A DNA stretch of 28,084 nt from a virus (taxonomy: Duplodnaviria; Caudoviricetes), in IMG/VR virus record IMGVR_UViG_3300025097_000039, positions 1 to 28,084 of that record; one strand, 5' to 3'. The position numbers and the translations under genes are program-made. Positions 1 to 23,366 of this stretch are shown piece by piece; the stretch's first letter is position 1, and each line of letters starts with the position of its first letter. Under the pieces are notes generated by a model. The model saw nothing but the letters and a program-made list of their open reading frames with translations. It ran no database searches and was not told the origin of the DNA.

Positions 1-12
1 TTTATATGCCAT
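1..12 (-). CDS. 5' end of a divergent gene, probably head completion protein gp4 (runs off the window)
   Basis: Reverse complement of 1-12 is ATG GCA TAT AAA (MAYK), the typical start of T4-like gp4 (MAYKGK...). gp4 usually lies head-to-head with the gp48/gp53 cluster. Only 4 codons are visible. Confidence 0.5.
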
Positions 13-13
13 A

Positions 14-33
14 TAGAAATATATATATGGGAG
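14..33. promoter_or_regulatory. Candidate divergent T4-type late promoter(s) plus RBS
   Basis: TAGAAATA (14-21) and palindromic TATATATA (20-27) are each one mismatch from TATAAATA. GGAG at 30-33 precedes the ATG at 43. Confidence 0.4.
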
Positions 34-42
34 ATTTAATAT

Positions 43-840
43 ATGACCAAATATCAGTACCCAATATCTTATACTAAAGATGAAGTCCCAAGGTGGGTGA
101 ATCTTAAAAACCGTGCATATGCAGGAGTCGCAACACTGCGGGGAAAGGACGATGGCATTGGTCCGGTTAATGAAGAGTTGGAGATAAACATAAATCTCCC
201 CAAAGAATTTACCTTTAACGATAGATCGCAATATCAATATGGGTATACCCAGTTAATGAATCCGTTACGGAATCTTATGGGGAATGTAGTCGAATCGAGT
301 GATTGGCTTGACGGCCTTGTAACGATATTAAAAAGATCGGCGAGTGCTGCGGTTGGTTGGGTGGATGTGCAGGCCGGGGATAGTGTTTTTCAGGGCGCTG
401 ATATTAGAAAATTTCATTTTAATTTTGATATGGTCCCTAAAACTATTAAAGAAGCCGAATCTATAAGTAAAATGTGTCATTCACTTCGAAAACAGGTGTA
501 TCCAACTGGTACAGTTGGTTCCGACCTTTTTGGTGCCATTCATCCCAGTCTATGGGATATTGAAATTGTAAAAAGTCCCGGCGGAGAAAAAGATCCCGAA
601 TGGGATTTAAATTTTCAACTTGCCGTTTTGGCTGAATGTATTATTGATAAAATGCCGGAAGGACCACGGGCAATAAGTAATCAAGATGCTTCTAAATTCA
701 GTCCGTCTGCTACAAAATTAACATTAGTATTTTTTGAATTAGAGCCCAATTACTTCGACGAGGACACTAAAGAGGCTGTAGCAAGATCAAAATTGGGTGT
801 GTTTGCACAATTATTTGATAAAGCAGCAAAGGTGGGATAA
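43..840 (+). CDS. gp48: Baseplate tail-tube cap protein, T4 gp48-like
   Basis: Motifs VFQGADIRKFHFNFDMVPKTIKEAESI, HPSLWDIEI and TKLTLVFFELE match the gp48/gp54 tube-fold family as I recall it. It lies directly upstream of gp53. Confidence 0.8.
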   Translation: MTKYQYPISYTKDEVPRWVNLKNRAYAGVATLRGKDDGIGPVNEELEININLPKEFTFNDRSQYQYGYTQLMNPLRNLMGNVVESSDWLDGLVTILKRSASAAVGWVDVQAGDSVFQGADIRKFHFNFDMVPKTIKEAESISKMCHSLRKQVYPTGTVGSDLFGAIHPSLWDIEIVKSPGGEKDPEWDLNFQLAVLAECIIDKMPEGPRAISNQDASKFSPSATKLTLVFFELEPNYFDEDTKEAVARSKLGVFAQLFDKAAKVG

Positions 841-854
841 AGCAGCAAAGGTGG
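817..854 (+). repeat. Exact 19-bp tandem duplication GATAAAGCAGCAAAGGTGG x2
   Basis: Copies at 817-835 and 836-854, read directly. The second copy supplies the gp48 stop codon (TAA 838-840). Confidence 0.95.
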
Positions 855-867
855 ATGGCCATCCACC
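850..867. repeat. Perfect 18-bp palindrome GGTGGATGGCCATCCACC (hairpin)
   Basis: The sequence equals its own reverse complement and is GC-rich in an AT-rich context, between gp48 and gp53. There is no U-tract on the + strand. Confidence 0.9.
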
Positions 868-886
868 CCCATGAATAGGAATTAAA

Positions 887-1843
887 ATGTTTTTAGAATT
901 GTTTCCAAAAATTTTCAATTATGATTTAACCGGAACCACGGGTGGTATGTTGGTAGATCTTGGTAATGTGTTTCAACGAGTTCGTTTCTCGAAAACGACC
1001 CTCTCAAATCACAGAATATATATCGATTATACAATAAAAGACGGAGAATCTCCCGAGGATGTGGCTATAGATTTTTATGGAAGTTCTCGATGGTTCTGGT
1101 TAGTTTTAATGTCTAATGACATTATTGACCCACTAGAAGAATGGCCAAAAAGTTCTTCCCAACTTCAAAGACAACTAAATAGTGTTCTTTATTTTGGAGG
1201 GAAATCATATTTTATAAATGACATTAAAGATTTTAAAGTAAATGATGTTATCGCCCAATCTGAGGGATGTACAATGGGCGAACCAGGATGCCCAGACGGA
1301 GTAACATCAAGCATGGAAAACTATGCAATAGTTGATGACTGGGATTCTAATTTTTTTAGAATAGATTCTTCCAGAATCGTTGGCTCTTTAAACGAAGACG
1401 ATTATATTACAATATTCCGAGAAAATGATTCGGGAAAAATAGATATGATTTCTGGTAGTACTGCATGTACAAGTAACATATTTCAATCCCAAATAAAAAA
1501 ATCAATTGATACAAAAGAATCTATATCGGCCTTTTATCAAGATGGATTTATCGTAAATCCATATGGAAGCACAGGGAACATAAATGATATCAATTACCCA
1601 AATGGAGACACTGGAGGATTGTGCGATTCTTCTGATTCTGTTTTATATCATTATATAAATGGATTGGATTATTCTCCAGTGGATTCTGAAACAATTGAAA
1701 ATAAATTGTTAGCAGAAAACGACTCGAAAAGGCAAATAAAATTAATTCATCCCCACTTTAAAGAAAAAATATTCAAAGAAATAAAAAATTTAATACAAAC
1801 ACCTGGTCAGAGAGGAAAAACTGTTTTTGTTGAAATAGGATAA
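887..1843 (+). CDS. gp53: Baseplate wedge subunit gp53 (LysM-like fold)
   Basis: YTIKDGESPEDVAIDFYGSSRWFWLVLMSNDIIDPLEEWP and C-terminal ENDSKRQIKLIHP are gp53 hallmarks. Confidence 0.9.
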   Translation: MFLELFPKIFNYDLTGTTGGMLVDLGNVFQRVRFSKTTLSNHRIYIDYTIKDGESPEDVAIDFYGSSRWFWLVLMSNDIIDPLEEWPKSSSQLQRQLNSVLYFGGKSYFINDIKDFKVNDVIAQSEGCTMGEPGCPDGVTSSMENYAIVDDWDSNFFRIDSSRIVGSLNEDDYITIFRENDSGKIDMISGSTACTSNIFQSQIKKSIDTKESISAFYQDGFIVNPYGSTGNINDINYPNGDTGGLCDSSDSVLYHYINGLDYSPVDSETIENKLLAENDSKRQIKLIHPHFKEKIFKEIKNLIQTPGQRGKTVFVEIG

Positions 1844-1850
1844 TTTTATT

Positions 1851-3803
1851 ATGGCAAATGAATATACAAGAGATGGCGATATTACAATAAATGAAATTAT
1901 TATTTCAAAATATGACTATGATTCCAAATCCATTAAAAACTCATTATCGATAGTCCCATCCGAAACTCAAAATATATTAGCAGCATTGGTTTTAGAAGAA
2001 AGTCTTTTTTCTCCTTTTGTTCGTGGTTCTTTAATAATAAAAGAAACTGGATTAATTTTTGATGAATTCAATTTTACCGGTGAAGAAGTTATTTCTATTA
2101 AAGTAGAAACTCCATCTGTGGAGAATTCTACCATTGAACTTGTGTTGTGCGCATATTCTGCCCAAACAATAGGAGATATAAATTCTATTCATGAGAAAAT
2201 TAAATTTCCAACAACCACTACTGGAATTTTTATATTAATCGAATTTGTTTCTTGTGAATATAATATATTAAGCAATTCGGAGATTGAACTAACTGATGTA
2301 GAATTTATAGGGAAAATATCTTCCGATAAAGAATCGGGATTAGTACAAACCATTCAAAGAAAATATTTTTCCGACGAAGAATTTGATGCAGAAAATACTG
2401 AAAATGCTGTTTGGTTTAAGAAAAATACAAAATCATATCCTTGGGGCAAACCAGAAGAGTATGATCAAACAGTTATTCAAACTTTAATTAATCTTTCTGA
2501 AAATTCTGTTCCCGAAGACAATTCATATGCTCCTAATTATTTATTTTGGAGGGACTTGAAACAATGGAGATTTAGATCTATTGAGAGTTTGTTGGGGGAA
2601 GATACCGTTAAAACATACAACACAATCGGGTCGAAGGAGGGTATATTAGAATATACAACCAAGATAATATCGTTTGTTGCCGAGGAAGATAATAACACAT
2701 TAAAATTGTTTGACATTGGTGCTTTTAATTCACATTATGATTATATAAAACCGAATTACGCAAATCCTTATCTTGATTATATTGATGTTCAAGATTCTAT
2801 CCTTCAAGAAAGAATAGAATTTAACTATTCGGATGAATTTGGAAAGTGGAAAACAGTAGAAGAAAATCCCCTGGTACAAGACGAATATACTAAAACTTAC
2901 AACAAGAAAATTAAACTGGGGGATAACATCTATGGTTATTTCTCTCCCAAATTTAACAGATTGTACCCAGTGCCAACCGACCGTTACGAAGATAAATCTG
3001 GCGAGGCAGAAGAAAAACAATGGCAATGTATATTTGACCAAACCGACTTAGACTATGAAAAATTAAAAACAATAAGAAATGATATTAAAGGTCCGGTTGA
3101 AGAATTAAAAGAAGAATATAGAAAAAAAATAAATCTAAAAACAAAATGGGACATTTATGAAAACCGAATCTGCTGTGCGAAAAAACCCATAATAAAAGAT
3201 CACTTCTTGGCCGTTATCGAGGAATCGAAATTTATTCCTGTCGAAGAATTAAACGAAACTCGCGGGGGAATTTATGAATATAAGTGGAGAGAAGTTGAAA
3301 TTTGGCCTAAAAGTTTTGTTGAGGGATATGAGGATGATATCGAAACTTTCAGTTCTGATAATTCGCCATTGGTGGTTGTTAGTGTTCCCGAGGGACTGTC
3401 CGGATCGTATCAGGAAGAGGGGGACATAGAATGGTCAAGACCTGCCTATAACATTAACGAATTAATGAACACCAGACCAGAGGGAGCAACTGCTGATGAT
3501 ATATTTGTTGGACCTGGGGTTAATGTTGCGAGTGAGAAACTAAACCAATATCCCAAAGGACATCAAATGATGCCTATTGGTGGTTATTTTAAAGTCGAAG
3601 ACAATCCATGTGATATAGATCACGAAAACATAGAAGTTAATTTTCATGGGCATGTCGTACAGATGTATAGAATGCCAAGTTATATTTTAAATTCCATCCA
3701 TCCGCAAAAAGAAGACGAAGACTCTCCTGATCCGTTAATTCCAAAGGATATATATTTCTTTGATGTGGTGAACGCTCATGATGGATTATGCAGGTGTAAA
3801 TAA
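1851..3803 (+). CDS. Baseplate hub (gp27-like) N-terminal part, followed by a helical stalk and an extra C-terminal domain ending NAHDGLCRCK
   Basis: LEESLFSPFVRGSLIIKET...FTGEEVISI, IEFVSCE and YLFWRDLKQWRFRSIESLL match the hub-like protein that follows gp53 in marine T4-like phages. The expected C-terminal G-x-[YW]-L-I-x-x-I-x-H motif is absent from this ORF. Confidence 0.65.
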   Translation: MANEYTRDGDITINEIIISKYDYDSKSIKNSLSIVPSETQNILAALVLEESLFSPFVRGSLIIKETGLIFDEFNFTGEEVISIKVETPSVENSTIELVLCAYSAQTIGDINSIHEKIKFPTTTTGIFILIEFVSCEYNILSNSEIELTDVEFIGKISSDKESGLVQTIQRKYFSDEEFDAENTENAVWFKKNTKSYPWGKPEEYDQTVIQTLINLSENSVPEDNSYAPNYLFWRDLKQWRFRSIESLLGEDTVKTYNTIGSKEGILEYTTKIISFVAEEDNNTLKLFDIGAFNSHYDYIKPNYANPYLDYIDVQDSILQERIEFNYSDEFGKWKTVEENPLVQDEYTKTYNKKIKLGDNIYGYFSPKFNRLYPVPTDRYEDKSGEAEEKQWQCIFDQTDLDYEKLKTIRNDIKGPVEELKEEYRKKINLKTKWDIYENRICCAKKPIIKDHFLAVIEESKFIPVEELNETRGGIYEYKWREVEIWPKSFVEGYEDDIETFSSDNSPLVVVSVPEGLSGSYQEEGDIEWSRPAYNINELMNTRPEGATADDIFVGPGVNVASEKLNQYPKGHQMMPIGGYFKVEDNPCDIDHENIEVNFHGHVVQMYRMPSYILNSIHPQKEDEDSPDPLIPKDIYFFDVVNAHDGLCRCK

Positions 3804-6589
3804 TGACTTCATATAATGGTTGTTGCTGTGATTGCTACAAAGAACCCTCGGCTTATATTACCTTTAATGTGCCGACAAAGATGTCAAACCCGTCAATTTA
3901 TGAATATGGTCCCGGACTTCATCTTTTAAATGAGTACCATTTTCACCATCCCAGCAACACAACGTGTAATGATTGCCCTACTTATGAGGACATATACGTC
4001 CCACAATATAAAGAATATCTCTTTTGGATGTCAGAGCACACTCCCTGGTGTTTATTAGACGAAGACATAATACACCCAAAAGTAAAAGCAGAAACATATC
4101 AAATAGATAATCAATATGTTGATTCGGAAACAGGATTAGTTAGAATTGGATTTGAATGTGTTGTTGATTTTCAATGGAATTTATATGATATTGACGTTGC
4201 ATGCGAAAATAAAGATGAAATCCAACGTTATGATTTGAATTCTTATTGCGGTGCTCATCCAGAAAGAGGAGCACAACAATCTAATTGTGTTCGAGGTTGC
4301 GTTAGCCCCCTTAATCCAGATGCGCTATATGATACTGAAGATTGTGATTTTACAGAGCCAGGAAATGTTTGTTTAAATTACCAATGGGCATCAGATTGTG
4401 AAAGTACATGTTCTAGTTTTTTCCCAGAATTTAATGGTGGGTGTGTATACAATCCTCCGGATTGTTACGACTTACCGTTTTTAAAGTTTGATACGACCAA
4501 CCACGACATTTGTGAAGGATTACCAAACTTAAGTAAACCCGGAAAAAATATAGATTCATTAACAGAAACTGTAAATAATGTTTATGGTTCTCTCATAGAA
4601 CGATTTGGCCCTCAAATTTTAGAAGATGGAGAAATGAATCCATATCCCCAGAATATTATTTTCATTTCTGGTGTTGAAGACACTTCGAGATATCACAAAT
4701 TGTGGAGATGGGATTCTTGGAATGATCCCGGTTATACTGGACCCAAAGATTGTTATGGAAATGAATGGGAATTACATAATGTAATTCCCATGTTAGACAG
4801 TACTACTCCTTATCATGCCTTCCCTGGATATGAAGACCACTCTGATTTTAATAATGATCCAAGGGGTCTAAACCCATTCCCCGAACAAGTTTCGGCTTTA
4901 TTGGGTGAACATATATTTTACTATAAATTAAAAAACAAATTTATAGAAGAGTGGGGAGAAGAAGTTGCAAATTACAAATTTAATGCCTGTCCTATAGGTG
5001 TAAATGAGGAAAATTGCTTTGGTCATTCGTGTTTAGAATCGTATGGGGGAAAAACTGGATGCTATACAACAATATCATCTCCTGATGATCCAGTTCCACA
5101 AAATGTCAGTGTAGATAAATTCTTTAATCAATATAACCATTGGCCTCATTTTGATGCCGACAAACCCGCAGAACACCCCGGAGACCCGTGGGAAGATTAT
5201 TATTGTAGTCTGGTTGAATGTGGCGATGATCTTCTTGGTGGTGAATTTTTGAATTTTAGAACTTGTGCTCGCGGATTTCCGTGGAATGACTCAACTTTTG
5301 GTGGTTATGCTTGGTCGGCGCAATACTCACCTTCTGATGGAATACAACGTGATCCATGTCGCGTTCCAATTCCGTGGGTAAATCCACACACATGGGAATT
5401 GGAACCTGCTCCGGGAAATTACAGAGAAAATGATACTCTTGTTCGTGGTACGGCAGACAGGGATAATATCCTATTAGTAGATGTAAATGAAACAACAAAA
5501 TATATGAAAAATTTCACAGAAATTTTCAAAACAAAACACCGTAGTCCCTGCTATCACACAAATATAATAGAAGACGAAGACGTAAATATATGTCCATGTG
5601 ATGAAGAAAAATTATATCAGGCAAATTCCTTTTTTATAGAAAAAATTAGTCCTGCAACATATCCACATTGTGCTGTGTCGTGCGAAGAACTAAATATAAA
5701 TTTATTTATTGGAGGCACAGGACCAAACGATTTTAATATTCCTCCGAATTGGGAATGTGACCCATTGTATTATGGCTATAATGTGATGGATTATTGTAGT
5801 GGGATGGCAGGCGGTCCAATACCTGCAAATGAACTTGGAGATGATTTTAGGCCAGATTACACAGCATATTCTACTGGAAACACCGATGATATTAGAGGTA
5901 AGGTATCTGCTGGTATAAACGTTAATGATCACTTTGTTACCTTTCCTTTAGTTTGCGACCAAACAGGATTTCCAGAGTATAAATTACCAACTCGCTACAG
6001 AAACATATACACCCACACTGGTCGTTGCTATTGTATAGACCCCGCATGTACAGACGATGATTTTGATGATGATTTTTGTTGCAACGAACCAGATAATTGG
6101 CACTGGGATTCTGAATTCTTTTCTGAATTGATGGATAGTTGTAGATCCCCGTTTCTTGCAACACAATCCATTCTGTGGGGTTACTTTTTCTCCCTTGGTA
6201 GTACTCAATATTATAATGATCATTATCTTGAATATATTAGTTCAGCACACCATTGTATAGACCGTTTTGGAGAAGATATATCAGCAACTGATGCATTCCC
6301 TGAATATTGGTGGGAACCCGGAATGGATTTATCTTCTGGAAATTATCCACTCACACCACATGATTTTATGTCATTTGACCAATGTGGCCGATGGACCAAC
6401 GCAGGCCAACCCCCCGTCCCATTGGATGACACAAATGTTCCAAATGAAAATTGTTCAGATCTAGATTGTTGGTGGATAAGTGGTGCTGACACATATGAGG
6501 ATAAAGGAACTCTCGTTTTTGATGAGTGTGGTTGCTGCTCTTCGACTCATGAAAACACAGATCTTTCAGAAAATTGTAGTTATTTCTAA
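3803..6589 (+). CDS. 928-aa acidic, Cys/Trp/Tyr/Pro-rich hypothetical protein, probably virion-associated, with N-terminal CCCxC
   Basis: Long ORF coupled to the upstream gene by a TAATG overlap. Starts MTSYNGCCCDC and ends DECGCCS...NCSYF. No family recognised. Confidence 0.85.
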   Translation: MTSYNGCCCDCYKEPSAYITFNVPTKMSNPSIYEYGPGLHLLNEYHFHHPSNTTCNDCPTYEDIYVPQYKEYLFWMSEHTPWCLLDEDIIHPKVKAETYQIDNQYVDSETGLVRIGFECVVDFQWNLYDIDVACENKDEIQRYDLNSYCGAHPERGAQQSNCVRGCVSPLNPDALYDTEDCDFTEPGNVCLNYQWASDCESTCSSFFPEFNGGCVYNPPDCYDLPFLKFDTTNHDICEGLPNLSKPGKNIDSLTETVNNVYGSLIERFGPQILEDGEMNPYPQNIIFISGVEDTSRYHKLWRWDSWNDPGYTGPKDCYGNEWELHNVIPMLDSTTPYHAFPGYEDHSDFNNDPRGLNPFPEQVSALLGEHIFYYKLKNKFIEEWGEEVANYKFNACPIGVNEENCFGHSCLESYGGKTGCYTTISSPDDPVPQNVSVDKFFNQYNHWPHFDADKPAEHPGDPWEDYYCSLVECGDDLLGGEFLNFRTCARGFPWNDSTFGGYAWSAQYSPSDGIQRDPCRVPIPWVNPHTWELEPAPGNYRENDTLVRGTADRDNILLVDVNETTKYMKNFTEIFKTKHRSPCYHTNIIEDEDVNICPCDEEKLYQANSFFIEKISPATYPHCAVSCEELNINLFIGGTGPNDFNIPPNWECDPLYYGYNVMDYCSGMAGGPIPANELGDDFRPDYTAYSTGNTDDIRGKVSAGINVNDHFVTFPLVCDQTGFPEYKLPTRYRNIYTHTGRCYCIDPACTDDDFDDDFCCNEPDNWHWDSEFFSELMDSCRSPFLATQSILWGYFFSLGSTQYYNDHYLEYISSAHHCIDRFGEDISATDAFPEYWWEPGMDLSSGNYPLTPHDFMSFDQCGRWTNAGQPPVPLDDTNVPNENCSDLDCWWISGADTYEDKGTLVFDECGCCSSTHENTDLSENCSYF

Positions 6590-6605
6590 ATATAGAATAA
6601 AGGAT
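6586..6605 (+). promoter_or_regulatory. Candidate late promoter (CTAAATA) overlapping a stop codon, plus AAGGA RBS
   Basis: TAAATA at 6587-6592 and AAGGA just upstream of the ATG at 6611. Confidence 0.5.
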
Positions 6606-6610
6606 TTACA

Positions 6611-7456
6611 ATGGTTCCAGACTTTTTTATACAACTTTCATCTTTTGCCAACAATACATGGCCATCAATGAGAATTGGCCATTCTACCTACGGTTATGAT
6701 GAAACTGCTAGATGTTCAAATCCAGAGGATTTTGTAGACAACAGTGAATGCTCAGAAGATGAACCATACTGCAATTGTCCGTGTCAAGATCTAATACCCA
6801 GAAAAGAAACTGTGTTTTTTGATGAATCTGATAATATAACAGACGGAAATCGGTATAAAGTTTTAAGTGAAGGCGGAGATGAAGTTAAATCATTTAACAA
6901 TCCAAATGATGCTCATGATTGGATAAAAAGTAATGGGGAAATGGATCCCAGACCCACAGACGAAGAATTAAAAGAATTAAGGGAATCGATAGACGAATGT
7001 TCTTTAATTGAAAGCAATCTGGGGTCCGAGTGGTTGGGATGTGATTGGAATAATCCGGAATCAGAGTTAAATTGTTCGTGTCCATGTATTAATTCAAAAT
7101 TTAAAGATTATTTAGAATATAATAGAACATATGCGATGTATTGGAATACCCCCAAACATACCCCGTTATATCGAAATATGTTGATGAGCACCATTATGTC
7201 CAAAAAATCTATATTAACGGCGAATGGAGATTTCTCACTACGACCTGGAAATGTTATTAAAATTGAAGATAATTTCAAATTTAAATCTTCTCTTCCTGAA
7301 AGAAAACACAACGGAAAATGGTTAATTTCAACAATAGAACATATTATCATTGGCACCACAAATCATACTATGAACATTTCTCTCCTTCGGGACACAAATC
7401 GATTTGATTCCTTAGACTCCCACTTTAAAGAAATAGATGTAGAAATTGAAAATTAA
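6611..7456 (+). CDS. Cys-rich N-terminal region fused to the C-terminal part of the gp27-like hub
   Basis: C-terminal ILTANGDFSLRPGNVIKI...HNGKWLISTIEHII...HTMNISLLRD matches the terminal motif of gp27/Mu-gp44/GpD-type hubs. The N-terminal part has CNCPC and CSCPC. Confidence 0.7.
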   Translation: MVPDFFIQLSSFANNTWPSMRIGHSTYGYDETARCSNPEDFVDNSECSEDEPYCNCPCQDLIPRKETVFFDESDNITDGNRYKVLSEGGDEVKSFNNPNDAHDWIKSNGEMDPRPTDEELKELRESIDECSLIESNLGSEWLGCDWNNPESELNCSCPCINSKFKDYLEYNRTYAMYWNTPKHTPLYRNMLMSTIMSKKSILTANGDFSLRPGNVIKIEDNFKFKSSLPERKHNGKWLISTIEHIIIGTTNHTMNISLLRDTNRFDSLDSHFKEIDVEIEN

Positions 7457-7459
7457 TCT

Positions 7460-7467
7460 TATAAATA
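7460..7467 (+). promoter_or_regulatory. T4-type late promoter TATAAATA
   Basis: Exact gp55-sigma consensus in the intergenic gap upstream of gp25. Confidence 0.8.
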
Positions 7468-7485
7468 TTCTAAAAAGGTTTTTAC

Positions 7486-7890
7486 ATGCCTGAAAAAATA
7501 AAATATTCCGATGTTGATTTTTCGTTCTCTAAAAATAGTTTTAGTGATGATGTTAACATTAAAACAAATGAAAATTCGATAAAACAATCTATTAAGAATA
7601 TCATATTAACCCATAAGCAAGAACGACCATTTAAATCTCGAATGGGGTCCAACCTCGCTGATATATTATTCGAATTATATGATCAAGGATCTCACTATTC
7701 TTTAAATAGTGAAATTAGGGACCAATTAGAGATATTTGAACCTAGAGTATTGTTACAAAAAGTTCGTATTGACGATTCACTTATCGACCAACACATTTTA
7801 AGTTTTGAAATTATTTTTAAGTATATTATAGGCAACCCAAAAGAACCAGTTCAAGATTCATTAGTCCTTTCAATAGAGAGAGTAAGATAA
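7486..7890 (+). CDS. gp25: Baseplate wedge subunit gp25
   Basis: YSDVDFSF...SIKQSIKNIILT...ERPF...GSNLADILFE...FEPRV...SIERVR; 134 aa; directly upstream of gp6. Confidence 0.95.
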   Translation: MPEKIKYSDVDFSFSKNSFSDDVNIKTNENSIKQSIKNIILTHKQERPFKSRMGSNLADILFELYDQGSHYSLNSEIRDQLEIFEPRVLLQKVRIDDSLIDQHILSFEIIFKYIIGNPKEPVQDSLVLSIERVR

Positions 7891-9654
7891 ATGGTAGCAG
7901 GAAACAGAATAAACATAGGAAATTTAGGATTTGAAGATATACGAAATAGTATTATTAATTTTCTTCAAACCGAAAAGGTGGGTGCTGCTTCATATTTAAA
8001 CGACTATACGTATGACGGTTCTGCTATGTCTACCTTGATTGATCTCTTATCCTATAATACCTTATATTATGCTTTTTATACGAACATGATTGCTAACGAA
8101 ATGTTTTTAGATAGTGCTCAAAAAGAAGAATCTCTAATATCACTAACAAAACCTCTTGGGTATGCAGTTCCGGGATATAACAGTGCCGTTGCTACTGTTT
8201 CTATGACCAAGGGGGGAGAGGGTAATGTGATAAAAAAATTAGAACATAAATTTAAAGGAACCGGTAGCGACGAATCTTTTGTGTTTGTTGCATATCAAGA
8301 CTATACACTAGACAGTCAGGGGAAACATCCGTCTATAGAATTATATGAAGCCAAAAATATAATTTTTGATCAGGTGTTTGTCGTTGAAATAGAATCACAA
8401 AGTATATCATTAGATGCTTATCCAAACATTGATATTTCTTCATTAATTGTTGAAGTAAGTGATGATGGGGGATCAACATGGGACGAATATGTTCTTAGTT
8501 CGAACATAGCACTTAATGTGGGCGAAGATCAAAAATTATATTGGCTAGAAAGAGATTCAAAAGGATTTAAAATTATATTCGGTGGACTGGAAGAAGAATT
8601 AAAAAATATATCTGTTGGTAGAAAAATAGAAACAAACGATAAAGTTCAGTTGTCTTTTGTTTTAAGCAGTGGCACTGATGGCAATGAAGTGTTTTCTTTC
8701 GAAACAGATGATGTCATAAAAGGTTCTGATGCTGATGCTCTTTCTGGGAATAATGAAATAACAACATTATCATCTTCTTCTGGTGGAAGTAATGGACCAA
8801 ATTTAGACAGTATACGTTTTTATGCTCCTCGCTGGTTTGCAGCCCAAGATAGGGCAGTAACAAAAGATGACTGTATTAGTCTATTGCAAGAAAAATCATA
8901 TAATAATTTTTCTCTCTGGGGCGGAGACGAAGCATCTCCGCCACAGTATGGAAAAGTTTTAATGTCTTTTGATAATGACGGAGAATGTGTAGATGCTTCT
9001 TCTTTTCTTGACACTAAACTACCCGTTACTATATTTTCTGAATGTATTCCCTCAGAATCATTTTCACTTATAGTAAACGTAAATGGTTTTTATAATCCAA
9101 ACGACACTCCCAGATCCCAAGACGAACTGAATGCTATAGTAGAATCCGCAGTCAATTCTCTTTATGAAACTGAAGAATTTAACACTGTGTTTGATAAAAC
9201 TCAAATCAACGAGGAACTAAAAAAGAAAGATAAAGCATTAACAATTTCTGATTCTGGTATATCATTAAAAATGAAAAACACACAACCAACTTCTACCGAT
9301 AAAAGAAAAATTAAATTCTTAACTACACTTGTTAGAGGTTCATTTGCCGGTGATACAATTTCATCTTCACAAATAACAACATCAACGTTGTCGAATGAAC
9401 CTTTTTGGTTACAAGACAATCCAAGCACCAACAATATAATTGCATTTAATTATATCAATGGGGTTAAAAATATCATTTCAGAAACAGCCGGAACTGTTGA
9501 TTATATCACGGGTCTGGTGGAAATTAATGCTGGTGTTTCAGTTAATTCCTTTTCAATAACGACAATTCTTCCACAAGAAGAATTAGTGTTTACTGCAAAG
9601 GAAAATATAAAAATTAATGTGATTACCACTGCATCTATAGAACCCCGAGGTTAA
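7891..9654 (+). CDS. gp6: Baseplate wedge subunit gp6
   Basis: LGFEDIRNSI...DYTYDGSAMSTLIDLLSYNT...NEMFLDSAQ...LGY; SIRFYAPRWFAAQDRAVT; WGGDEASPPQYGKV; GTVDYITG. Confidence 0.95.
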   Translation: MVAGNRINIGNLGFEDIRNSIINFLQTEKVGAASYLNDYTYDGSAMSTLIDLLSYNTLYYAFYTNMIANEMFLDSAQKEESLISLTKPLGYAVPGYNSAVATVSMTKGGEGNVIKKLEHKFKGTGSDESFVFVAYQDYTLDSQGKHPSIELYEAKNIIFDQVFVVEIESQSISLDAYPNIDISSLIVEVSDDGGSTWDEYVLSSNIALNVGEDQKLYWLERDSKGFKIIFGGLEEELKNISVGRKIETNDKVQLSFVLSSGTDGNEVFSFETDDVIKGSDADALSGNNEITTLSSSSGGSNGPNLDSIRFYAPRWFAAQDRAVTKDDCISLLQEKSYNNFSLWGGDEASPPQYGKVLMSFDNDGECVDASSFLDTKLPVTIFSECIPSESFSLIVNVNGFYNPNDTPRSQDELNAIVESAVNSLYETEEFNTVFDKTQINEELKKKDKALTISDSGISLKMKNTQPTSTDKRKIKFLTTLVRGSFAGDTISSSQITTSTLSNEPFWLQDNPSTNNIIAFNYINGVKNIISETAGTVDYITGLVEINAGVSVNSFSITTILPQEELVFTAKENIKINVITTASIEPRG

Positions 9655-15654: not shown

Positions 15655-16890
15655 ATGAATAGTTGTTCAAACACATCAAATATAACCCCCAATCTCTTAG
15701 TTCGTGATTTACAAATCAATTCGGGATCTCGGTTGTTTGTTACCATTAATGAGAGTGGATTTTCTGGTGGTTTTGATTCTTCATTGGGCGGAGTAACGGG
15801 TGGTGATGTTATCTTTTATGATGTTCGTAGCGGAAGTGTCAGTGAAAACAAATTTGCCAAGGCTAGAGCCGATTCTCCTGCGACTTCTGAAGTTTTTGGA
15901 ATAATCGAAACTGTCGATGACGACATAAATTATGCCAACGTGGTTATTTCGGGACTTATTGTGTATCCTTCAGAACAATTTAATTATGTGCCTGATGCGG
16001 ACGGTAATACTGGGGGGCTTGGTGGCGGGAATGATGTATTTTTCCTTAGTGGTATAACTGCTGGCGAACTAGAAAATCTTGCACCAACAACCCAAACATG
16101 GATTACAAAGCCTCTCCTTTCCAGGACTAGTATTGATGACTATAACGGTGTAGTTTTAAATTATATCGGTTATGAAGTTGGCGGAGCGGTAGCAGGAGAA
16201 GACTTATCTAGTCCTCCAGTGGGAAGTTTAATTTATGTCCCAACGGATCTGGTTGAAGAAATTACTTCTAAAAATGACACATGGGTGGATGCAAGAAGTT
16301 CTCATGAACTTTCTACTACAACTTATCAATCGTTATATTCTGTATATAAAGACTCTTCGGGTAAACCAAAATATGGTTATATTGAAGAAGTCGAACTTAC
16401 TTCGGAATATAATGCTAATTTGTCACACAAAAGTAAAAACATATCACAAGGAACAGGAACTTCTAAAACACAAGGAACAATTGAAAATGTTGATTTGGTT
16501 AATAACAAATATGAAATTAAAAAGAAATCAACTGAGGACAATTTCAGCAGTTCAAATTCTTTTATTACAATTCATAAATCAACATCTAAAGCAAAATCAA
16601 ACGGAATGACCAAATTTTTCACACCCCAATATAAATCAACAAGCGATAGTATAATTGATGTTTTTGGTTCTCCAACATCCATTCAGATGGTTCCCCTCCT
16701 ACGAATCAAGACAACACAAGCAGTCTATGTACCTAGTAAAGTTTCTGTAGAAGAATTAGAAGTTAGAGACATCTTAACAGCATCAACAACAAATACCTCT
16801 GCTACAACACCAACAATCGACGATATTGCTCTTGAAATTAGTAACTTGAAAGATGACGTTGCTCTTTTAAATTCAAGAGTGATTGGATAA
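15655..16890 (+). CDS. Tail fibre-associated protein with a degenerate tail-collar-like domain and C-terminal coiled coil
   Basis: PPVGSLIY...W...STTTYQSLYSVY...YG resembles the phage tail collar motif. The N-terminal domain is paralogous to part of the upstream gene. Ends IALEISNLKDDVALLNSRV. Confidence 0.55.
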   Translation: MNSCSNTSNITPNLLVRDLQINSGSRLFVTINESGFSGGFDSSLGGVTGGDVIFYDVRSGSVSENKFAKARADSPATSEVFGIIETVDDDINYANVVISGLIVYPSEQFNYVPDADGNTGGLGGGNDVFFLSGITAGELENLAPTTQTWITKPLLSRTSIDDYNGVVLNYIGYEVGGAVAGEDLSSPPVGSLIYVPTDLVEEITSKNDTWVDARSSHELSTTTYQSLYSVYKDSSGKPKYGYIEEVELTSEYNANLSHKSKNISQGTGTSKTQGTIENVDLVNNKYEIKKKSTEDNFSSSNSFITIHKSTSKAKSNGMTKFFTPQYKSTSDSIIDVFGSPTSIQMVPLLRIKTTQAVYVPSKVSVEELEVRDILTASTTNTSATTPTIDDIALEISNLKDDVALLNSRVIG

Positions 16891-16894
16891 TGTT

Positions 16895-19867
16895 ATGCCT
16901 ATATTCCATGGAAGTAGTTATTACCACATAGAAAAAGGCCGAACAGGACCAACAGGGCCAACAGGACCAACTGGTCCTGGAGGGATAATGGGATTTGATA
17001 TTGGATCCACTGGTTCCACCGGTCCTTCAATTGTTGGAATAACTTTAGATTCTAACCAAAGAGTATTAACAACATTCATAAATGCTGATGGTACTACTTT
17101 TGGTGTGACCACCAATAATGAAATTGTTGGTCCTCCCAACAATGAAGTTAAATTGTTTGTTGCTGGGGAAAATGTTTCTGGTGTTGCCGGGGCTACATTA
17201 TTTAAAGAGAGTGTCGATACAAATTCGTTAACACTAAGGGTACTTGGTTCATCGGGTGATGTCTCTCTCCACACAAACGAAGAAGGGATTGAAATTATTT
17301 TCGATAGGGGAACCTTTGGTTATGTTAATGTAACGGGGGGCGGAGAAACTGGAAATATAATTGGTGTTAATTCTTCTGGAATAATTACGGGAATTCCTCG
17401 AACAAGATATAATCCATCAGAAGAAAACACAAGAACACCATTAACTCTTGTTAATAAAAATTTTGCAGAATATTTTTCCCATAAAGAAAGAACAACTAAG
17501 AATCCAACAAACGAAGAAGGTTATTATGTTGAAGACAGAGAAAATTCAATAGATGGGTTGACTGCATTAAATGTAGAATTGTTTCCATCAGAAATTAAAA
17601 ATCATCATAATGTATATTTTGATATTCGTGGCTTAGATAATTCTGTGAGTTGGGGCATTTCTGCTTCTGATAAGTATGCAGCGTGTTTCTTTGATATACA
17701 ATCGCCTCCTGAACATCTCCGGACCCAAACCAATACATTTATGTTGGTTACTGATGGTGTTAGTGGATCGTCTCAAGTTGGATTTAGTCAAAATGTTATA
17801 TTCCCGTTTGAAAAGGAACCTTGTTTTAGTGGTGGGATTGATATTACAAACTTCTTTTCAAAAAATAACATTTGGTATGGGATACCCGTTTATAGAAACG
17901 GGGAATTCGACGAAGATTCTTTATTCTCTTGTAAACCAGTCTCGGCAAATGCTAGTAATTTAGGTAGTACTGGAGCATGCTGCCAAGGAATTGATGATTG
18001 TATTCATATCGAACAATCATTATGCGATGGGTATTTTTATGGTTCCGGAACTACATGTGGATATACAGGAAATAGTGGAAATACTGGAAACATTTGCTAT
18101 GGTCGAGGAGCCTGTTGTATACGAAAAGTTGGTTCTCAAGAAAAATTCATTTGCTATGATAATATTACAGCAAACGAATGTATAAATTTTGATTTGTTGG
18201 ATGAATATGTTGCTGTGTATAACGGCGATGGGGTTAAATGCACAGACACGGATTGTAAATTCACCGAGATTAAAATGGGATATTGTTGTGATGGTCTGGG
18301 ACACTGTGTCAATGGAATATTAGAAACTTGCATGGATCATGGATTCTTTTTTGGAGAAACCGGCACTCCTTGTCAAAGCAACGATTATGGCCTTTATAAG
18401 TGGGACACGAGCAACAAGGAAACCCCCTGTTCTTCTGGAACAGGAGGTTGTTGTATAGATAAAATTTGTTATGATAATTATTCATATACAGACTGCATGA
18501 AAGGTGGTGGTTTGTTTGCGGGTGCTGGATCTTCGTGTGATTATATTAGTTGTCCCTCCGTCAAAGGTAATTTAAGCCGAGAAGAATGTTCGTTTTTGGT
18601 TGATGGAATACCATTACAGACTGGCGATCTGTATGCTGGTGGTATGGTGGTTGGAATGTTTAAACCCGGTCAAAGTATGTGTTTTGGTGCCACTGCGTTT
18701 GGTGGAAGAAACACCGATTATAGATCACTCCTTAATGGGAGCAATGGGGTCAGTGGTGGTTTGTATGTTAATAAACACGATTATCACGGTTATGGATTCT
18801 CGTTGGACCAATCAGAATACTCTCAGGAAACCATAACAAATCCAGATTCATATCTAATGATTGTTTCGATGGAACCTATTGCAATAACGGGAGACCGTGA
18901 AGTTGTGACATACCCAGAATCTTCGGGTGCTACTACAGAATTCTATTGGAACAACAACGGAAGTTCTTGGGGACCATTATATAACCAATATGGTGAATAT
19001 GATGATATTTCGCTTGATTATCATAAAAGATTCTTAAATTATAAAGAGGGATTTTGGTACAATTATAAACAAGGACACCTCTCGTTGGAAGATGTGGTTT
19101 CTAATACCTTTACGAGTAAGAAAAAAGCACACGCTAACGGTGAATACCCATATGAAAAATTACTAACTCGACCTCTCCAAAATGCAAATGGTATGTGGCA
19201 CAGAAACTGGGGTCTTTATAATTCAATTCGAATGGTTTCAGCAGATAATATTCTCCATGAAGGATATACAGGAGAGTATTCATATTCCTCATCCGATTTT
19301 GGTCCTGGATTAACTTCAGATTATATCTCTGCAATTCGGGCCACTCGTCTATTAGATGATGGTTTAACATCTGACTCACAAGGAATAACAGGAAACCCAG
19401 AAAATGTTTCAGGGTGGTATATCCCCAGTTATGATGAACTTTCATTCTTAGCAGCACATTGCTTATTGGATGATGATAATCCACACGGATTTAACTTAAA
19501 TATAGAACTAATGAAAAATGATGGTATTCCTTTGGGGGGTTATCATTGGTCATCGACCGGTTCTTTTGATGAAAATAATATAAACATATTAACAAATGTG
19601 TTCCCAACACTTCCCCATGAGGGTTTGTTCACAAATGAAAACGATATGGTCGCCGGAAGCGTTGCTTGGAGTATGAATTTTGATCTAAACGGAATTTCAA
19701 ACAATTTCATAACCAAGAAAAAGAAAAGAACAGAAGAAACCTGTAAGGTTAGACCCATTCGTTTGATTCGTTGTGATACTAGATATTATGGAGCAACTGG
19801 CGATGGGAATACTTTATGGAATATTCCTCCTCTATTGAAGGACAAAAACAAAGAGATTAATCAATAA
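16895..19867 (+). CDS. Long fibre/adhesin 1: collagen-like repeat, 4 GxCC repeats, DUF1566/CLec-like C-terminus
   Basis: The ATG at 16895 (MPIFHGSS) is preferred over the TTG at 16883 because it aligns with the paralogue starts. Motifs: GPTGPTGPTGP; GACC, GACC, GYCC, GGCC; GWYIPSYDEL, YHWSST, AWSMNF, KVRPIR. Confidence 0.8.
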   Translation: MPIFHGSSYYHIEKGRTGPTGPTGPTGPGGIMGFDIGSTGSTGPSIVGITLDSNQRVLTTFINADGTTFGVTTNNEIVGPPNNEVKLFVAGENVSGVAGATLFKESVDTNSLTLRVLGSSGDVSLHTNEEGIEIIFDRGTFGYVNVTGGGETGNIIGVNSSGIITGIPRTRYNPSEENTRTPLTLVNKNFAEYFSHKERTTKNPTNEEGYYVEDRENSIDGLTALNVELFPSEIKNHHNVYFDIRGLDNSVSWGISASDKYAACFFDIQSPPEHLRTQTNTFMLVTDGVSGSSQVGFSQNVIFPFEKEPCFSGGIDITNFFSKNNIWYGIPVYRNGEFDEDSLFSCKPVSANASNLGSTGACCQGIDDCIHIEQSLCDGYFYGSGTTCGYTGNSGNTGNICYGRGACCIRKVGSQEKFICYDNITANECINFDLLDEYVAVYNGDGVKCTDTDCKFTEIKMGYCCDGLGHCVNGILETCMDHGFFFGETGTPCQSNDYGLYKWDTSNKETPCSSGTGGCCIDKICYDNYSYTDCMKGGGLFAGAGSSCDYISCPSVKGNLSREECSFLVDGIPLQTGDLYAGGMVVGMFKPGQSMCFGATAFGGRNTDYRSLLNGSNGVSGGLYVNKHDYHGYGFSLDQSEYSQETITNPDSYLMIVSMEPIAITGDREVVTYPESSGATTEFYWNNNGSSWGPLYNQYGEYDDISLDYHKRFLNYKEGFWYNYKQGHLSLEDVVSNTFTSKKKAHANGEYPYEKLLTRPLQNANGMWHRNWGLYNSIRMVSADNILHEGYTGEYSYSSSDFGPGLTSDYISAIRATRLLDDGLTSDSQGITGNPENVSGWYIPSYDELSFLAAHCLLDDDNPHGFNLNIELMKNDGIPLGGYHWSSTGSFDENNINILTNVFPTLPHEGLFTNENDMVAGSVAWSMNFDLNGISNNFITKKKKRTEETCKVRPIRLIRCDTRYYGATGDGNTLWNIPPLLKDKNKEINQ
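16937..17028 (+). repeat. Collagen-like G-x-T triplets (fibre 1)
   Basis: GRTGPTGPTGPTGP...GSTGSTGPS. Confidence 0.85.
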
Positions 19868-22800
19868 TGATAAACGGAAGTAGTACAATACCAACCATAG
19901 GAGCAATGGGACCAACCGGAAACACTGGTCCTGCTGGTCTTGTCGGAGCCACAGGTTATACTGGTACAACGGGTTCAGTGGGACCAAGGGGTATTGGTAT
20001 TATTGGTGCTACTAGTGAAGGTAACGATAAAGTTATCTTTGAATTGACAGATGGAACAACCATTGGAACTACTGGATTTCGGGGATTAACCGGAGATCCA
20101 AATGATGCCCTTATCGAAGTTTTAAGTACTAAAGAAGGAAGCACATATGGAATTGTAATTCAAGGAACATCTGGTTCAACTGCATATTTTCGGGGAATAT
20201 ATTCTTCTGGTGATTTAACAATCGATTCGTCCACAGACACTATTGTTATTCATGGTAATGAATACACATATGGTATAATTGGTAATACTGCAAACAATTT
20301 CTTGTATATGAACAGTGGGAACAGTGCTCAGGGAACAGACGAATATACTAAATTTGATCATTTGGGTTCTGGTTTCACATACGGAAATTTATATCATTTA
20401 GCAGGAGAATTTAGAGAAGACAGTTCAAGCGGAAATATCATTTCTGATCCCGCAGTACCACCAACAAATTCTCATGAAATCACAAATGACTTTACAGACA
20501 CCGAAAAATTTAGATCTATACCATTTTCACATTATGGAGACAACGGTAACACATATGGTATTAATTTAGGAGTTTCTGGTGGAAGTGAAGAAGTATATTA
20601 CTTCAAGAAGACTGAAAAAATAACAGATCCATTTCTAACACCATATTCTTATAATTTTGGTTCTTGTTGTTTATGTACTGATGATGATAACGAAGAAACT
20701 ATAGACCATCTCTGTCTTGATTATGTAACTGATGCATATTGTGATTCTGTTGGTGGTGTTTTTGATTTAAATTCTTGTTATAATAGACCAGAAGGACCGG
20801 ATTGTGTTTCGAGTGGTAGTTGTTGTTTGTGGGGACGTTGTTACCCAACAACAAAAAATAACTGTGACACTCTGAAGGGATCATTTGCATCAGTTCCGTG
20901 TGGTACATTCGAATGTCCTGATCCATGTAGTACAGAAAATAATGCTTGTTGTATCGAAGGAAGTTGCTTTAACTTTACACAAGAAATTTGTATTGGTGTT
21001 GGTGGTGTGTGGTATGATATGATTTGCAATGATGCCCTTTGCTGTTTTGGTGGACTTCAAACAGGTGCTTGTTGTCACAACGAAGTTCCTCCTTGTGATG
21101 ATGAAGGAAATTGCCCCACAACACCAGAAGGAATAAAAAGATGCATGCAAATGTCTCCGCCGATGTGCTCAGAGACGGGTGGGGCATTTTATGGTTTCAA
21201 TACTTTATGCTGCACACCAGACTATATGGATGCGGGATGTGTTGAATGCTGCTCCTTCCCAGGAGATACCCAAAAAAGAGCATGCTGTGTTCCTGATTCA
21301 GAAGGAGAAAATTATACCTGTGTTCATGTAACGGAGAATGAATGTTTTGTGCAAGGTGGTATTTTTAATTCTCAATTACCAACTTGTATTGGTTCTCCCT
21401 GCTCACAATATTCAGGCGGAAGTGGTGGTAGTAGGTCATCGAATCCATTCTCCTCAGAAACTCCAAATTGCAATCCTTGTTTAACAAACGAAAGACAAGA
21501 GAAAACTGTTCAGTATGTGCCGGGCAAATACTACGAAGAATTGGGTGGTTATTTTATCGGTTATGTTGGTCATGACGATACTTGTGATTATGGAGATGTG
21601 TTGGGTGACCATCGATATCCTCTTGCTAAAGGTCAAATTAAAAAACAAATCGAAAAACATTCTAGAGATACCATCAAATATCTCCCCGGAATGGAGTGGG
21701 AATCTTTAGACATCAATTCTGATAACCCCGGTCCAAAATTGTCTAATGGTAAAAATTATAAAAACTACTCCGACCTTTACAGCAAGACCCCAGAAGAACA
21801 AAATAAAGATATTAATTATGGTTGGAATCCGTATGAAAATCACATTGCCCCTGATGTAGTATATTCATACACACTAACTAATTCTGATCATGTTTCAAAT
21901 CTTTATTCTGAAGATTATGATATTTGTTCTTTTAAACCAGATTTTGATTCCCGTTGTGCTACTCCTTCGGGCGATAATCAATTCTTGTATAATGTTTACT
22001 ATCCATATCTTTATGGTTGTCCATATGGATATAACGTATCGCCCGGTGAAGGTTATTATCAAGATTTCTATGTTGAAACTCCATACAGTTCATATTGTAA
22101 TACACATAACAAATGGGATATAAATTCAAAGGGTGAACAGATATATCCTTCTTTAATGTCTCTATATGGTTGGACTGAAGGAACAAGAAACAACCCGATC
22201 CATCCACATAATCCTCATTATACGCACTTTGCAAATAAAATTTACGGAAAGGATAAACTACATCGCCGCTGGGCTCTAGTGTTATCTCCCGTTGATATCG
22301 TAAACCCCAATAAAATTGATTCTGATATCAATTATATGTTAAACTGGGGGACAATGCAGAATGCTAATATAAATGAAGATGGTTCGTTTGTTGGTGATAT
22401 AATTGAAACAACGGAATATGATGGTTTATTAAATACAAGAATGTTTGATGACACATCATATAAAGAAAATTTATGGTTCTTTGGAGATGGTAAAGATTAT
22501 GAAAGATGGAATGCTTCATTTTGGCCTGACTCCGTTTCTTCAACAGATATTAATAATTCTTCAGAACAATTTAAAGAATCGTATCAGGAATATTGGGAAA
22601 CGATTAACCAAAACAATTCCTGTTTGTGGAATGTCTCAAACATTAACAACACGGGAGTAATGAACGACGGAGAACGGTTTGATTATCAAACTAATTATTC
22701 GGATTGGTATATCCCAAGTCTCACAGAACTAAATTATGTTTATTGGGCTACGAAAAACACCAACTTAAATAATCAACTGATTGGTAATGGTCATAAACCT

Positions 22801-23346
22801 CTAGTAGAAGATACATATTGGTCTTCTACAAGTGCTGACCGATGGTACGTCAATCCGTTTAATGGAAGTCATGTTCGACCAACACATATGAAATTTAATT
22901 GGGATTGGGATTCGTTTGAGGGACATGACGGAAATATGGGTCCAAGTTATCATCACATTAATGATTTTGATTCCATTTGGAATTCGCTGCCCTCCGACGA
23001 TTCAAATATAGATAAAGATGAAATAAGAAGAAAGGCTGGGAATGCCCACAGGATGTCATGTCAAATATTTAATGGATATCCCCATCCCGGACTAAACCAT
23101 CATCATTGTGGATATGATTCCCAAAGCCTATGTGAAGGTATGACAATTACCCCACTTCGTGATGAGGAAGTTGCTGCACTAAGATTAGTTAGAAGAGTTT
23201 TAGTATATTCAGCAGACACAGATACATGGATAAACGATTATGATCCGGGAGATATTAGTATTTCCAGAAAACAATATAATAAAGAAAATTCATGGAAAAA
23301 CGACAATTCGATAGATGATGGTATGAGAGGCTGTCTAAATAATTAA
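19867..23346 (+). CDS. Long fibre/adhesin 2: collagen-like repeat, 5 CC repeats, DUF1566/CLec-like C-terminus
   Basis: TAATG-coupled to the upstream gene. MINGSS...GPTGNTGPAG; GSCC, GSCC, NACC, GACC, RACC; DWYIPSLTEL, TYWSST, LRLVRRV. Confidence 0.8.
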   Translation: MINGSSTIPTIGAMGPTGNTGPAGLVGATGYTGTTGSVGPRGIGIIGATSEGNDKVIFELTDGTTIGTTGFRGLTGDPNDALIEVLSTKEGSTYGIVIQGTSGSTAYFRGIYSSGDLTIDSSTDTIVIHGNEYTYGIIGNTANNFLYMNSGNSAQGTDEYTKFDHLGSGFTYGNLYHLAGEFREDSSSGNIISDPAVPPTNSHEITNDFTDTEKFRSIPFSHYGDNGNTYGINLGVSGGSEEVYYFKKTEKITDPFLTPYSYNFGSCCLCTDDDNEETIDHLCLDYVTDAYCDSVGGVFDLNSCYNRPEGPDCVSSGSCCLWGRCYPTTKNNCDTLKGSFASVPCGTFECPDPCSTENNACCIEGSCFNFTQEICIGVGGVWYDMICNDALCCFGGLQTGACCHNEVPPCDDEGNCPTTPEGIKRCMQMSPPMCSETGGAFYGFNTLCCTPDYMDAGCVECCSFPGDTQKRACCVPDSEGENYTCVHVTENECFVQGGIFNSQLPTCIGSPCSQYSGGSGGSRSSNPFSSETPNCNPCLTNERQEKTVQYVPGKYYEELGGYFIGYVGHDDTCDYGDVLGDHRYPLAKGQIKKQIEKHSRDTIKYLPGMEWESLDINSDNPGPKLSNGKNYKNYSDLYSKTPEEQNKDINYGWNPYENHIAPDVVYSYTLTNSDHVSNLYSEDYDICSFKPDFDSRCATPSGDNQFLYNVYYPYLYGCPYGYNVSPGEGYYQDFYVETPYSSYCNTHNKWDINSKGEQIYPSLMSLYGWTEGTRNNPIHPHNPHYTHFANKIYGKDKLHRRWALVLSPVDIVNPNKIDSDINYMLNWGTMQNANINEDGSFVGDIIETTEYDGLLNTRMFDDTSYKENLWFFGDGKDYERWNASFWPDSVSSTDINNSSEQFKESYQEYWETINQNNSCLWNVSNINNTGVMNDGERFDYQTNYSDWYIPSLTELNYVYWATKNTNLNNQLIGNGHKPLVEDTYWSSTSADRWYVNPFNGSHVRPTHMKFNWDWDSFEGHDGNMGPSYHHINDFDSIWNSLPSDDSNIDKDEIRRKAGNAHRMSCQIFNGYPHPGLNHHHCGYDSQSLCEGMTITPLRDEEVAALRLVRRVLVYSADTDTWINDYDPGDISISRKQYNKENSWKNDNSIDDGMRGCLNN
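19900..19992 (+). repeat. Collagen-like triplets (fibre 2)
   Basis: GAMGPTGNTGPAGLVGATGYTGTTGSVGPRG. Confidence 0.85.
23335..23341 (+). promoter_or_regulatory. Candidate late promoter CTAAATA
   Basis: TAAATA core about 25 nt upstream of the ATG at 23367, overlapping the end of the previous gene. Confidence 0.45.
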
Positions 23347-23366
23347 TAACATTTGGAATTCTATTT

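Follow-up and report, generated by a model that had tools for sequence, protein, structure and literature searches.

The compact baseplate hubs of T4-like phages, such as T4 gp27 and the compact hubs of the PHROG 350 family (~415-450 amino acids (aa); Kyanoviridae, phiN3, Ackermannviridae, and similar phages), consist of one chain, carry no insert, and are followed by gp5. The second β-barrel of T4 gp27 is built from residues 207-239 and 307-368 and forms a pseudo-sixfold ring with the first barrel, and VgrG from type VI secretion systems (T6SS) resembles gp27-gp5 (PMC3004832). The hubs of T4, T5, 80alpha, and T6SS are single chains, and those of lambda (gpL/gpJ) and the gene transfer agent RcGTA (gp13, Hub; gp15, Megatron) are split, with a Cys/Fe-S domain at the break and the cut lying between hub domains I and II (PMC10721106). 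Closure of the tail tube is due to insertions in hub domain II (HDII) in T5 and RcGTA, and myophages normally use the OB domain of gp5 together with the spike, as described in a preprint (bioRxiv 10.1101/2022.09.20.507954). Here, we report a T4-like baseplate hub that is divided between two genes in a 28,084-nucleotide stretch of viral DNA (positions 1 to 28,084 of the IMG/VR record IMGVR_UViG_3300025097_000039, Caudoviricetes), hereafter called the window. Three open reading frames (ORFs) are involved: ORF A (1851-3803, 650 aa), ORF B (3803-6589, 928 aa, 50 Cys), and ORF C (6611-7456, 281 aa).

A and C are complementary parts of one gp27-type hub, cut inside a lineage-specific insert. On the 436 positions of PHROG 350, A matches 14-306 (E 5.5e-14) and C matches 342-427 (E 4.4e-8) without overlap, and profile-profile alignment (hhalign) to 11 compact hubs places A at residues 4-302 (prob 99.9) and C at 334-419 (prob 99.5) of a 436-aa hub, the break taking the place of a stretch of ~30 residues in the compact forms. 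The AlphaFold model of A has a mean predicted local distance difference test (pLDDT) score of 64; Foldseek returns T4 gp27 as its best match (E 1.6e-7 to 6e-7), and structural alignment by VIA covers gp27 residues 4-288 only (Z 12.6, root-mean-square deviation (rmsd) 5.0, 256 aligned). Thus, A represents the N-terminal ~70% of such a hub, with residues 1-345 holding the first β-barrel, the second domain, the first strands of the second barrel, and the start of the distal domain, and C supplies the missing C-terminal barrel strands. Given the composition of the second barrel of gp27, A alone lacks half of the ring-forming barrel, and that half is encoded by C; both barrels are therefore not in one polypeptide here, as they are in 48 fused relatives. 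Sequence searches of the PDB with profiles of A, C, the terminal domain of A, and the fused insert gave nothing significant. A first-pass annotation made from the letters alone had placed the N-terminal part of the hub in 1851-3803 and the C-terminal part in 6611-7456 and had expected complementary coverage, and both predictions are borne out by PHROG 350, hhalign, and the gp27 range matched by A. The features of the locus are as follows.

1851-7456, plus strand: ORFs A, B, and C
1851-2885, plus strand: A residues 1-345, N-terminal part of a gp27-type hub (PHROG 350, hhalign, Foldseek, VIA)
3054-3176, plus strand: A residues 402-442, long helix ending in Cys-Cys (model, helix 402-439; alignment)
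3189-3803, plus strand: A residues 447-650, insertion-containing OB-fold-like domain with NAHDGLCRCK at its end (model, VIA, census)
3803-6589, plus strand: ORF B, 928-aa acidic Cys-rich protein starting with MTSYNGCCCDC (sequence, relatives)
6587-6604, plus strand: T4-late-promoter-like TAAATA (6587-6592) and AGGA (6601-6604) before C (sequence; activity predicted)
6611-7150, plus strand: C residues 1-180, two Cys clusters around an acidic helix (alignments)
7151-7396, plus strand: C residues 181-262, C-terminal hub helix and strands completing the second β-barrel (PHROG 350, hhalign)
7457-7890, plus strand: 29-bp gap and gp25, the gp5 slot of cultured T4-like phages, empty here (Pfam, PHROG)

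The split is conserved and does not stem from faulty assembly. Over 1801-7500, four other IMG/VR contigs match the window at 99.97-100% identity without gaps, and in contigs of four independent runs, all free of indels, the A/B junction is bridged in at least three of the four and the B/C junction in all four, which supplies the support across 3803 and 6589-6611 that the first-pass annotation had asked for. Stops and starts are kept down to ~30% identity. Both hub genes are under purifying selection, like gp6-gp8: relative to an 85%-identical relative, the ratio of nonsynonymous to synonymous substitution rates (dN/dS) for A and C comes to 0.084 and 0.048, respectively, compared with 0.08-0.11 for gp6-gp8, and within C it is 0.014-0.11 for residues 1-180 and 0.037 for residues 181-262. 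The C-terminal hub part is as well conserved in split forms (44%) as in fused ones (38%), or slightly better. Mutual information between the N- and C-terminal parts over 85 paired rows ranks A N214/E217 with C 206-212 at the top (z up to 8), a signal in which phylogeny is uncontrolled and which has no strand-pairing pattern. That the hub consists of two chains, as had been suggested, is supported by complementary coverage, conservation, and independent assemblies; the physical association of A and C is inferred.

The same site is occupied in diverse ways among relatives. A census of all fetched loci that hold both the helix-Cys-Cys of the N-terminal part and the C-terminal hub strands yielded, after removal of near-copies, 95 distinct loci, drawn from the best 80 matches of chosen queries, so that their proportions are not population frequencies. 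These include 48 single-chain hubs that carry a large insert at the position of the break, 35 three-gene loci (an N gene, one or two middle genes, and a C gene), 10 loci with A and C adjacent, and 2 broken ones. The fused forms are single ORFs of 1499-2016 aa among those listed, with an insert of ~770-1330 aa that has conserved motifs of its own; the inserts of L071 and L142 are of the fused type but irregularly broken, one of them with ambiguous bases. In more distant single-chain hubs (977 and 1240 aa), this site holds a smaller insert that contains Cys; compact hubs lack any. The lineage-specific insert sits between the two halves of the second β-barrel and is carried by relatives as one, two, three, or sometimes four genes. 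Split and fused forms are interleaved in a tree of the hub core, in which supported branches force at least 3-4 changes; the tree, built by a quick search, has long branches and no test of clades, L071 and L142 are wrongly labelled split in it, and no order of events is drawn from it. The interleaving suggests that the cassette has been exchanged repeatedly inside a conserved frame. The expectation that related contigs would show the same split was thus confirmed by the 35 three-gene loci. The first-pass annotation had the break display an added module; the break falls, however, within an insert that is unbroken in many relatives, and B is dispensable.

The frame itself, helix-Cys-Cys where the chain enters the insert and Cys cluster-helix-Cys cluster where it leaves, is common to all forms. 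On A, C441 and C442 are invariant in 49 sequences, and the helix-Cys-Cys is shared by fused and split hubs. On C, residues 1-180 comprise a first Cys cluster (C35, C47, CNCPC), a variable loop, an acidic helix (113-130), and a second cluster (C130, C144, CSCPC), and run collinear with the last part of the insert of fused hubs, where the same modules occupy the same place. The Cys-containing extensions that had been noticed on both sides of the break are therefore genuine, their motifs being invariant or nearly so. It is likely that A 402-442 forms the outgoing arm and C 1-180 the returning arm of a stalk.

Between these arms, split forms carry a domain of ~200 aa at the end of A that was recognized in 44 of 45 intact split loci by hidden Markov model and in the 45th by motifs, and in none of the 48 fused loci. 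Folded alone, it reaches a pLDDT of 81.7 and a predicted TM score (pTM) of 0.81. A VIA search of 48,161 chains returned mostly OB folds, with P2 gpV at the top (Z 4.3, rmsd 2.9, 71 aligned, chain 14-84; a weak match), followed by a PhiTE baseplate chain (Z 4.2), Pa193 (3.9), and, at 3.8 each, Mu and the R2 pyocin spike. Of the 11 highest-ranking chains, 7 belong to baseplates of phages or tailocins and are taken, from entry titles and ranges, to be spike OB domains. By the tool's own warning, Z values below 8 may reflect a common arrangement. No similarity to the fused insert or to three gp5 N-domains was detected by hhalign, and Foldseek against the PDB gave no match at E <=0.001. One weak full-length match was found in BFVD, a 206-aa uncharacterised phage protein (E 4.5e-3, TM 0.41), and in the Atlas, clusters of viral hypothetical proteins of ~150 aa match the domain at 0.90; sequence searching revealed no clear case of a stand-alone version. 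The structural search supports an OB-like fold with large insertions; a kinship with spike OB domains is no more than a lead. A ends few residues after the last strand, and no triple β-helix follows.

Each of the described systems is matched in part only. The hub of the window shares fold, family, and position after gp48 and gp53 with T4 gp27 and the compact PHROG 350 hubs, but these have only ~30 residues at the break site. Like lambda gpL+gpI+gpJ and RcGTA, the locus divides hub domains between genes with others in between and has a Cys-rich domain at the break. However, those systems are non-contractile and cut after domain I, inside the HDII insertion, whereas here the loop domain of the second barrel is cut and a sheath and a gp25/gp6 wedge are present; the allocation of domain I to one gene and domains II-IV to another is not found, A holding gp27 4-288, and no homology between the inserts was detected. 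In VgrG, an OB fold follows a complete hub. VgrG and the spikes of extracellular contractile injection systems (eCIS) resemble A in that hub and OB-like domain lie in one polypeptide (their OB domains score a weak Z 2.8-3.4 in the VIA search), but the domain of A follows an incomplete hub and a long helix, is succeeded by no β-helix, and leaves the last hub strands to a separate gene. The spikes P2 gpV, Mu gp45, and T4 gp5, with an HxH-Fe apex or PAAR tip, are the best, though weak, fold matches of the terminal domain of A, and a conserved His/Cys motif ends the chain here; in contrast to them, there is no β-helix, no HxH, and no sequence similarity to the gp5 N-domain, and the tip would be a large variable protein. 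For disulphide chemistry only, a precedent is Agrobacterium phage Milano, whose contractile tail and baseplate contain inter-subunit disulphides but whose hub and spike are of the ordinary kind, the hub a single chain (PMC10811340). The 'split genes' of Campylobacter phages were considered as a precedent and rejected, being inteins and introns in other genes. The arrangement divides the hub like lambda and RcGTA and joins hub and OB-like domain like VgrG, but lacks defining features of each. It had been called an unrecognised architecture; this is tempered by the split hubs of lambda and RcGTA, from which it differs in the site of the cut. Searches of article full texts listed no account of it.

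The slot that gp5 occupies in cultured T4-like phages is empty. In 67 of 67 distinct loci, gp25 directly follows the C-terminal hub, whereas in annotated controls gp5 comes directly after the hub (phiN3 and BUCT-ZZ01) or ~0.8 kb after it (P-RSM1). In the records of the lineage, all of which are fragments (12-70% complete, none at least 90%, several of them near-copies), the gp5 families phrog_430, phrog_694, and phrog_1922 were found in 0/42, 0/34, and 0/14, compared with 3/3 cultured controls each; a gp5 N-domain profile matched only the 3 control loci among 405; and Pfam Gp5_OB and PAAR were each found in 0/5 records, the former in a search that had no positive control. A 123-kb record has an unbroken structural module from the single-stranded DNA (ssDNA)-binding protein to the late sigma factor, and no spike was seen among the 72 of its 117 ORFs that were scanned. 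gp5 was found in neither fused nor split forms, and within the completeness of these records it is likely absent from the genome. The empty gp5 slot and the confinement of the OB-like domain to split forms, neither of which was in the first-pass annotation, probably matter more than the features that were. At the edge of the structural module, in the phage of the window and two relatives, two conserved genes with no PHROG match stand beside the ssDNA-binding-protein gene (L248:317-2708, L174:3-2958, L179:2246-4963) and are candidates for an unrecognised tail component.

On this evidence, a model can be proposed in which A and C co-assemble as an (A+C)3 hub whose inserted module closes the tail tube and carries a tip in place of the gp5 needle, a prediction that we favour slightly. 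C would complete the second barrel of A by strand complementation, which is very probable. The two framing helices would form a Cys-stabilised stalk that rises from the distal domain and points away from the tube, a step that is probable to a lesser degree. The terminal domain of A, as a spike-type OB fold, might trimerise on the axis, for which the chance is put somewhat below even; the C-terminus of such a domain would run outward and not back to the hub, so that the chain would need to stop there, which would account for the constant co-occurrence of domain and split. There is an even chance that B docks through its N-terminal Cys run onto the terminal C-x-C of A, by disulphides or metal, as an exchangeable host-contact tip. 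Its own late-promoter-like site would let C remain matched to A regardless of how long B is, and the insert would close the tube and carry the tip as do the HDII insertions of T5 and RcGTA. More tentatively, and with the balance tilted against it, one may picture a widespread uncultured T4-like lineage that dropped the gp5/PAAR needle and built its tip from a hub insert; in one branch type, a spike-like OB domain would have entered the insert and cut the hub into two barrel-sharing chains, creating a Cys-linked socket for exchangeable tips of 260-2600 aa, on a contractile tail that would open and recognise the host with no β-helical spike.

Several observations weigh against this model. The OB match is weak, other OB folds, among them those of the ribosomal S12 type, coming within 1 Z unit of the best score; the N-terminal Cys pair is missing from 3 of 33 middle genes, and in 10 loci the middle gene itself is absent; the fused forms, which are without gp5, are also without a detectable terminal domain, so that the OB-like domain was not the first replacement of the needle; and gp5 could lie elsewhere or be too diverged, since the records are fragmentary. 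An unlikely alternative is that A and C form one hub on which the insert and the OB-like domain are mere side decoration, the gp5 spike, in conventional or diverged form, being encoded at another place in the genome. It gains from the weak OB assignment, from the incompleteness of every lineage record, and from the mobility of the hub-gp5 module, which in P-RSM1 is separated from gp25 and in BUCT-ZZ01 neighbours the late sigma factor. It is opposed by the 0/42 records, up to 157 kb, that match gp5 families able to detect 3/3 controls, by the proximity of gp5 to the hub gene in all 3 controls, and by the restriction of the gp5 N-domain profile to 3 control loci of 405.

ORF B is accessory and hypervariable. 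Its start overlaps the stop of A, and it is 61% identical to its nearest relative, compared with 81-89% for neighbouring genes. It has no Pfam family, no usable Atlas match, and a single weak PHROG match of unknown function. The middle genes range from 262 to 2604 aa and are mostly unlike one another, but 30 of 33 carry a Cys-Cys run within ~10 residues of the N-terminus, all 33 start 0-22 nt from the stop of the N gene, and the N gene ends in most cases with a conserved NAHDGxCxC-type motif. In a two-gene subgroup, a Cys-rich passenger is located inside the terminal domain, and the 10 loci in which A is next to C show that B is dispensable. Pfam searches of 30 middle or insert proteins found a VWA domain in one (L042:6919-11118, E 2e-8) and sub-threshold matches in two, and a DxSxS motif resembling a metal-ion-dependent adhesion site (MIDAS) was recognized by eye in the short middle genes L035:7034-7918 and L040:7141-7935; the VWA and MIDAS-like motifs indicate adhesin-like modules in the variable slot. 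B is likely a tip or adhesin. That it is instead an unattached fibre-like or accessory gene, unrelated to the two-chain hub and using the A/C boundary as a landing site, is improbable: B is missing in 10 loci and largely non-homologous between groups, and Cys repeats of the GACC type occur in some middle genes as well as in downstream fibre genes, but the Cys run is kept in 30/33 otherwise unlike genes facing a conserved C-x-C on A, the start lies 0-22 nt from the stop of A in all 33, and a passenger of this kind occurs as a fusion within A in one subgroup.

The expression signals of C, which had been reported from the letters, are both in place: the TAAATA (6587-6592) overlaps the stop of B, and the AGGA (6601-6604) is a putative ribosome-binding site. 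In 23/35 three-gene loci, a TAAATA is located no more than 60 nt upstream of C, with a perfect TATAAATA in 12, and in two-gene loci it precedes C in 4/10, none perfect; the counts for other genes are 2/28 (gp53), 3/33 (hub A), 4/34 (B), 8/32 (gp25), 1/32 (gp6), and 1/24 (gp7). With gaps of 0 nt between A and B and 21 nt between B and C, there is no room for an intron core, and these gaps, the ribosome-binding site and promoter-like site of C, the conservation of stops and starts to ~30% identity, and the OB folds as best matches of the terminal domain make it very improbable that A and C are joined after transcription or translation by an intron, a split intein, or read-through. This idea draws on the existence of fused relatives and on the terminal domain, which comes after a Cys pair and has at its end a His/Cys motif loosely resembling that of an intein; no Hint/intein or intron family appeared among the Pfam, fold, or Rfam matches, and Rfam on 1-9000 gave none. 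An assembly error or a decaying gene has a negligible chance, the irregular breaks of L071 and L142, inside fused-type inserts and in one case with ambiguous bases, being outweighed by identity in four other contigs and bridging in independent runs, which refutes an assembly error for the window, and by the same layout in 35 distinct loci with dN/dS below 0.1 for A and C.

A large aquatic lineage that retains the contractile sheath, shows no recognisable spike, and carries a variable insert in its hub would add to the known means of closing tubes and breaching cells, and its hosts might have an unusual envelope. The natural series, from compact hub through small insert, large fused insert, and two genes to three genes, illustrates the way in which a hub may be cut and given a new tip, and points to the likely host-range gene of these phages.

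The window as a whole is a T4-like baseplate cluster, with a gp48-like gene, gp53, ORFs A, B, and C, gp25, gp6, gp7-like and gp8-like genes, and fibre genes, in which the hub gene sits after gp48 and gp53 as is usual (PHROG, Pfam). The two genes upstream of the hub are as follows.

43-840: gp48-like gene
887-1843: gp53

The presence of gp25, gp6, and gp53 in the window and of a tail sheath in the relative G001 identifies the contractile type. The stretch is present in 20 sequencing runs, of which 15 could be its source, all marine metagenomes, from 18 studies, and no RNA run is among the listed holders. The 123-kb relative encodes a tail sheath and a T4-like capsid ~61% identical to those of Methylophilales phage Melnitz and cyanophages, and its genome size is estimated to be near 180 kb. 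No direct match to A or C was found in cultured phages by tblastn, and bacterial and archaeal genomes scanned for C and for A's terminal domain yielded none.

A few further features were noticed along the way. A 19-bp exact tandem duplication lies across the stop codon of the gp48-like gene and runs into a perfect 18-bp palindrome (817-867; palindrome 850-867) just before gp53, and this stretch is identical in other assemblies. In the two-gene subgroup L234, L236, L238-L242, L244, and L246, the gene that takes the place of gp53 is roughly double the usual length (585-625 aa vs 318 here). Short tail sheath genes of 432 and 385 aa in two relatives, at L171:10001-11296 and L177:361-1515 (minus strand) suggest a minimal sheath. 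Finally, three long fibre-like genes at 16883-28084 have a short collagen-like segment at the N-terminus and G-x-C-C repeats rich in Cys (in 3, 3, and 11 copies, with as many as 146 Cys), which may resemble repeats of Planctomycetota proteins, and relatives carry several fibre-like G-x-C-C genes of up to 1922 aa.

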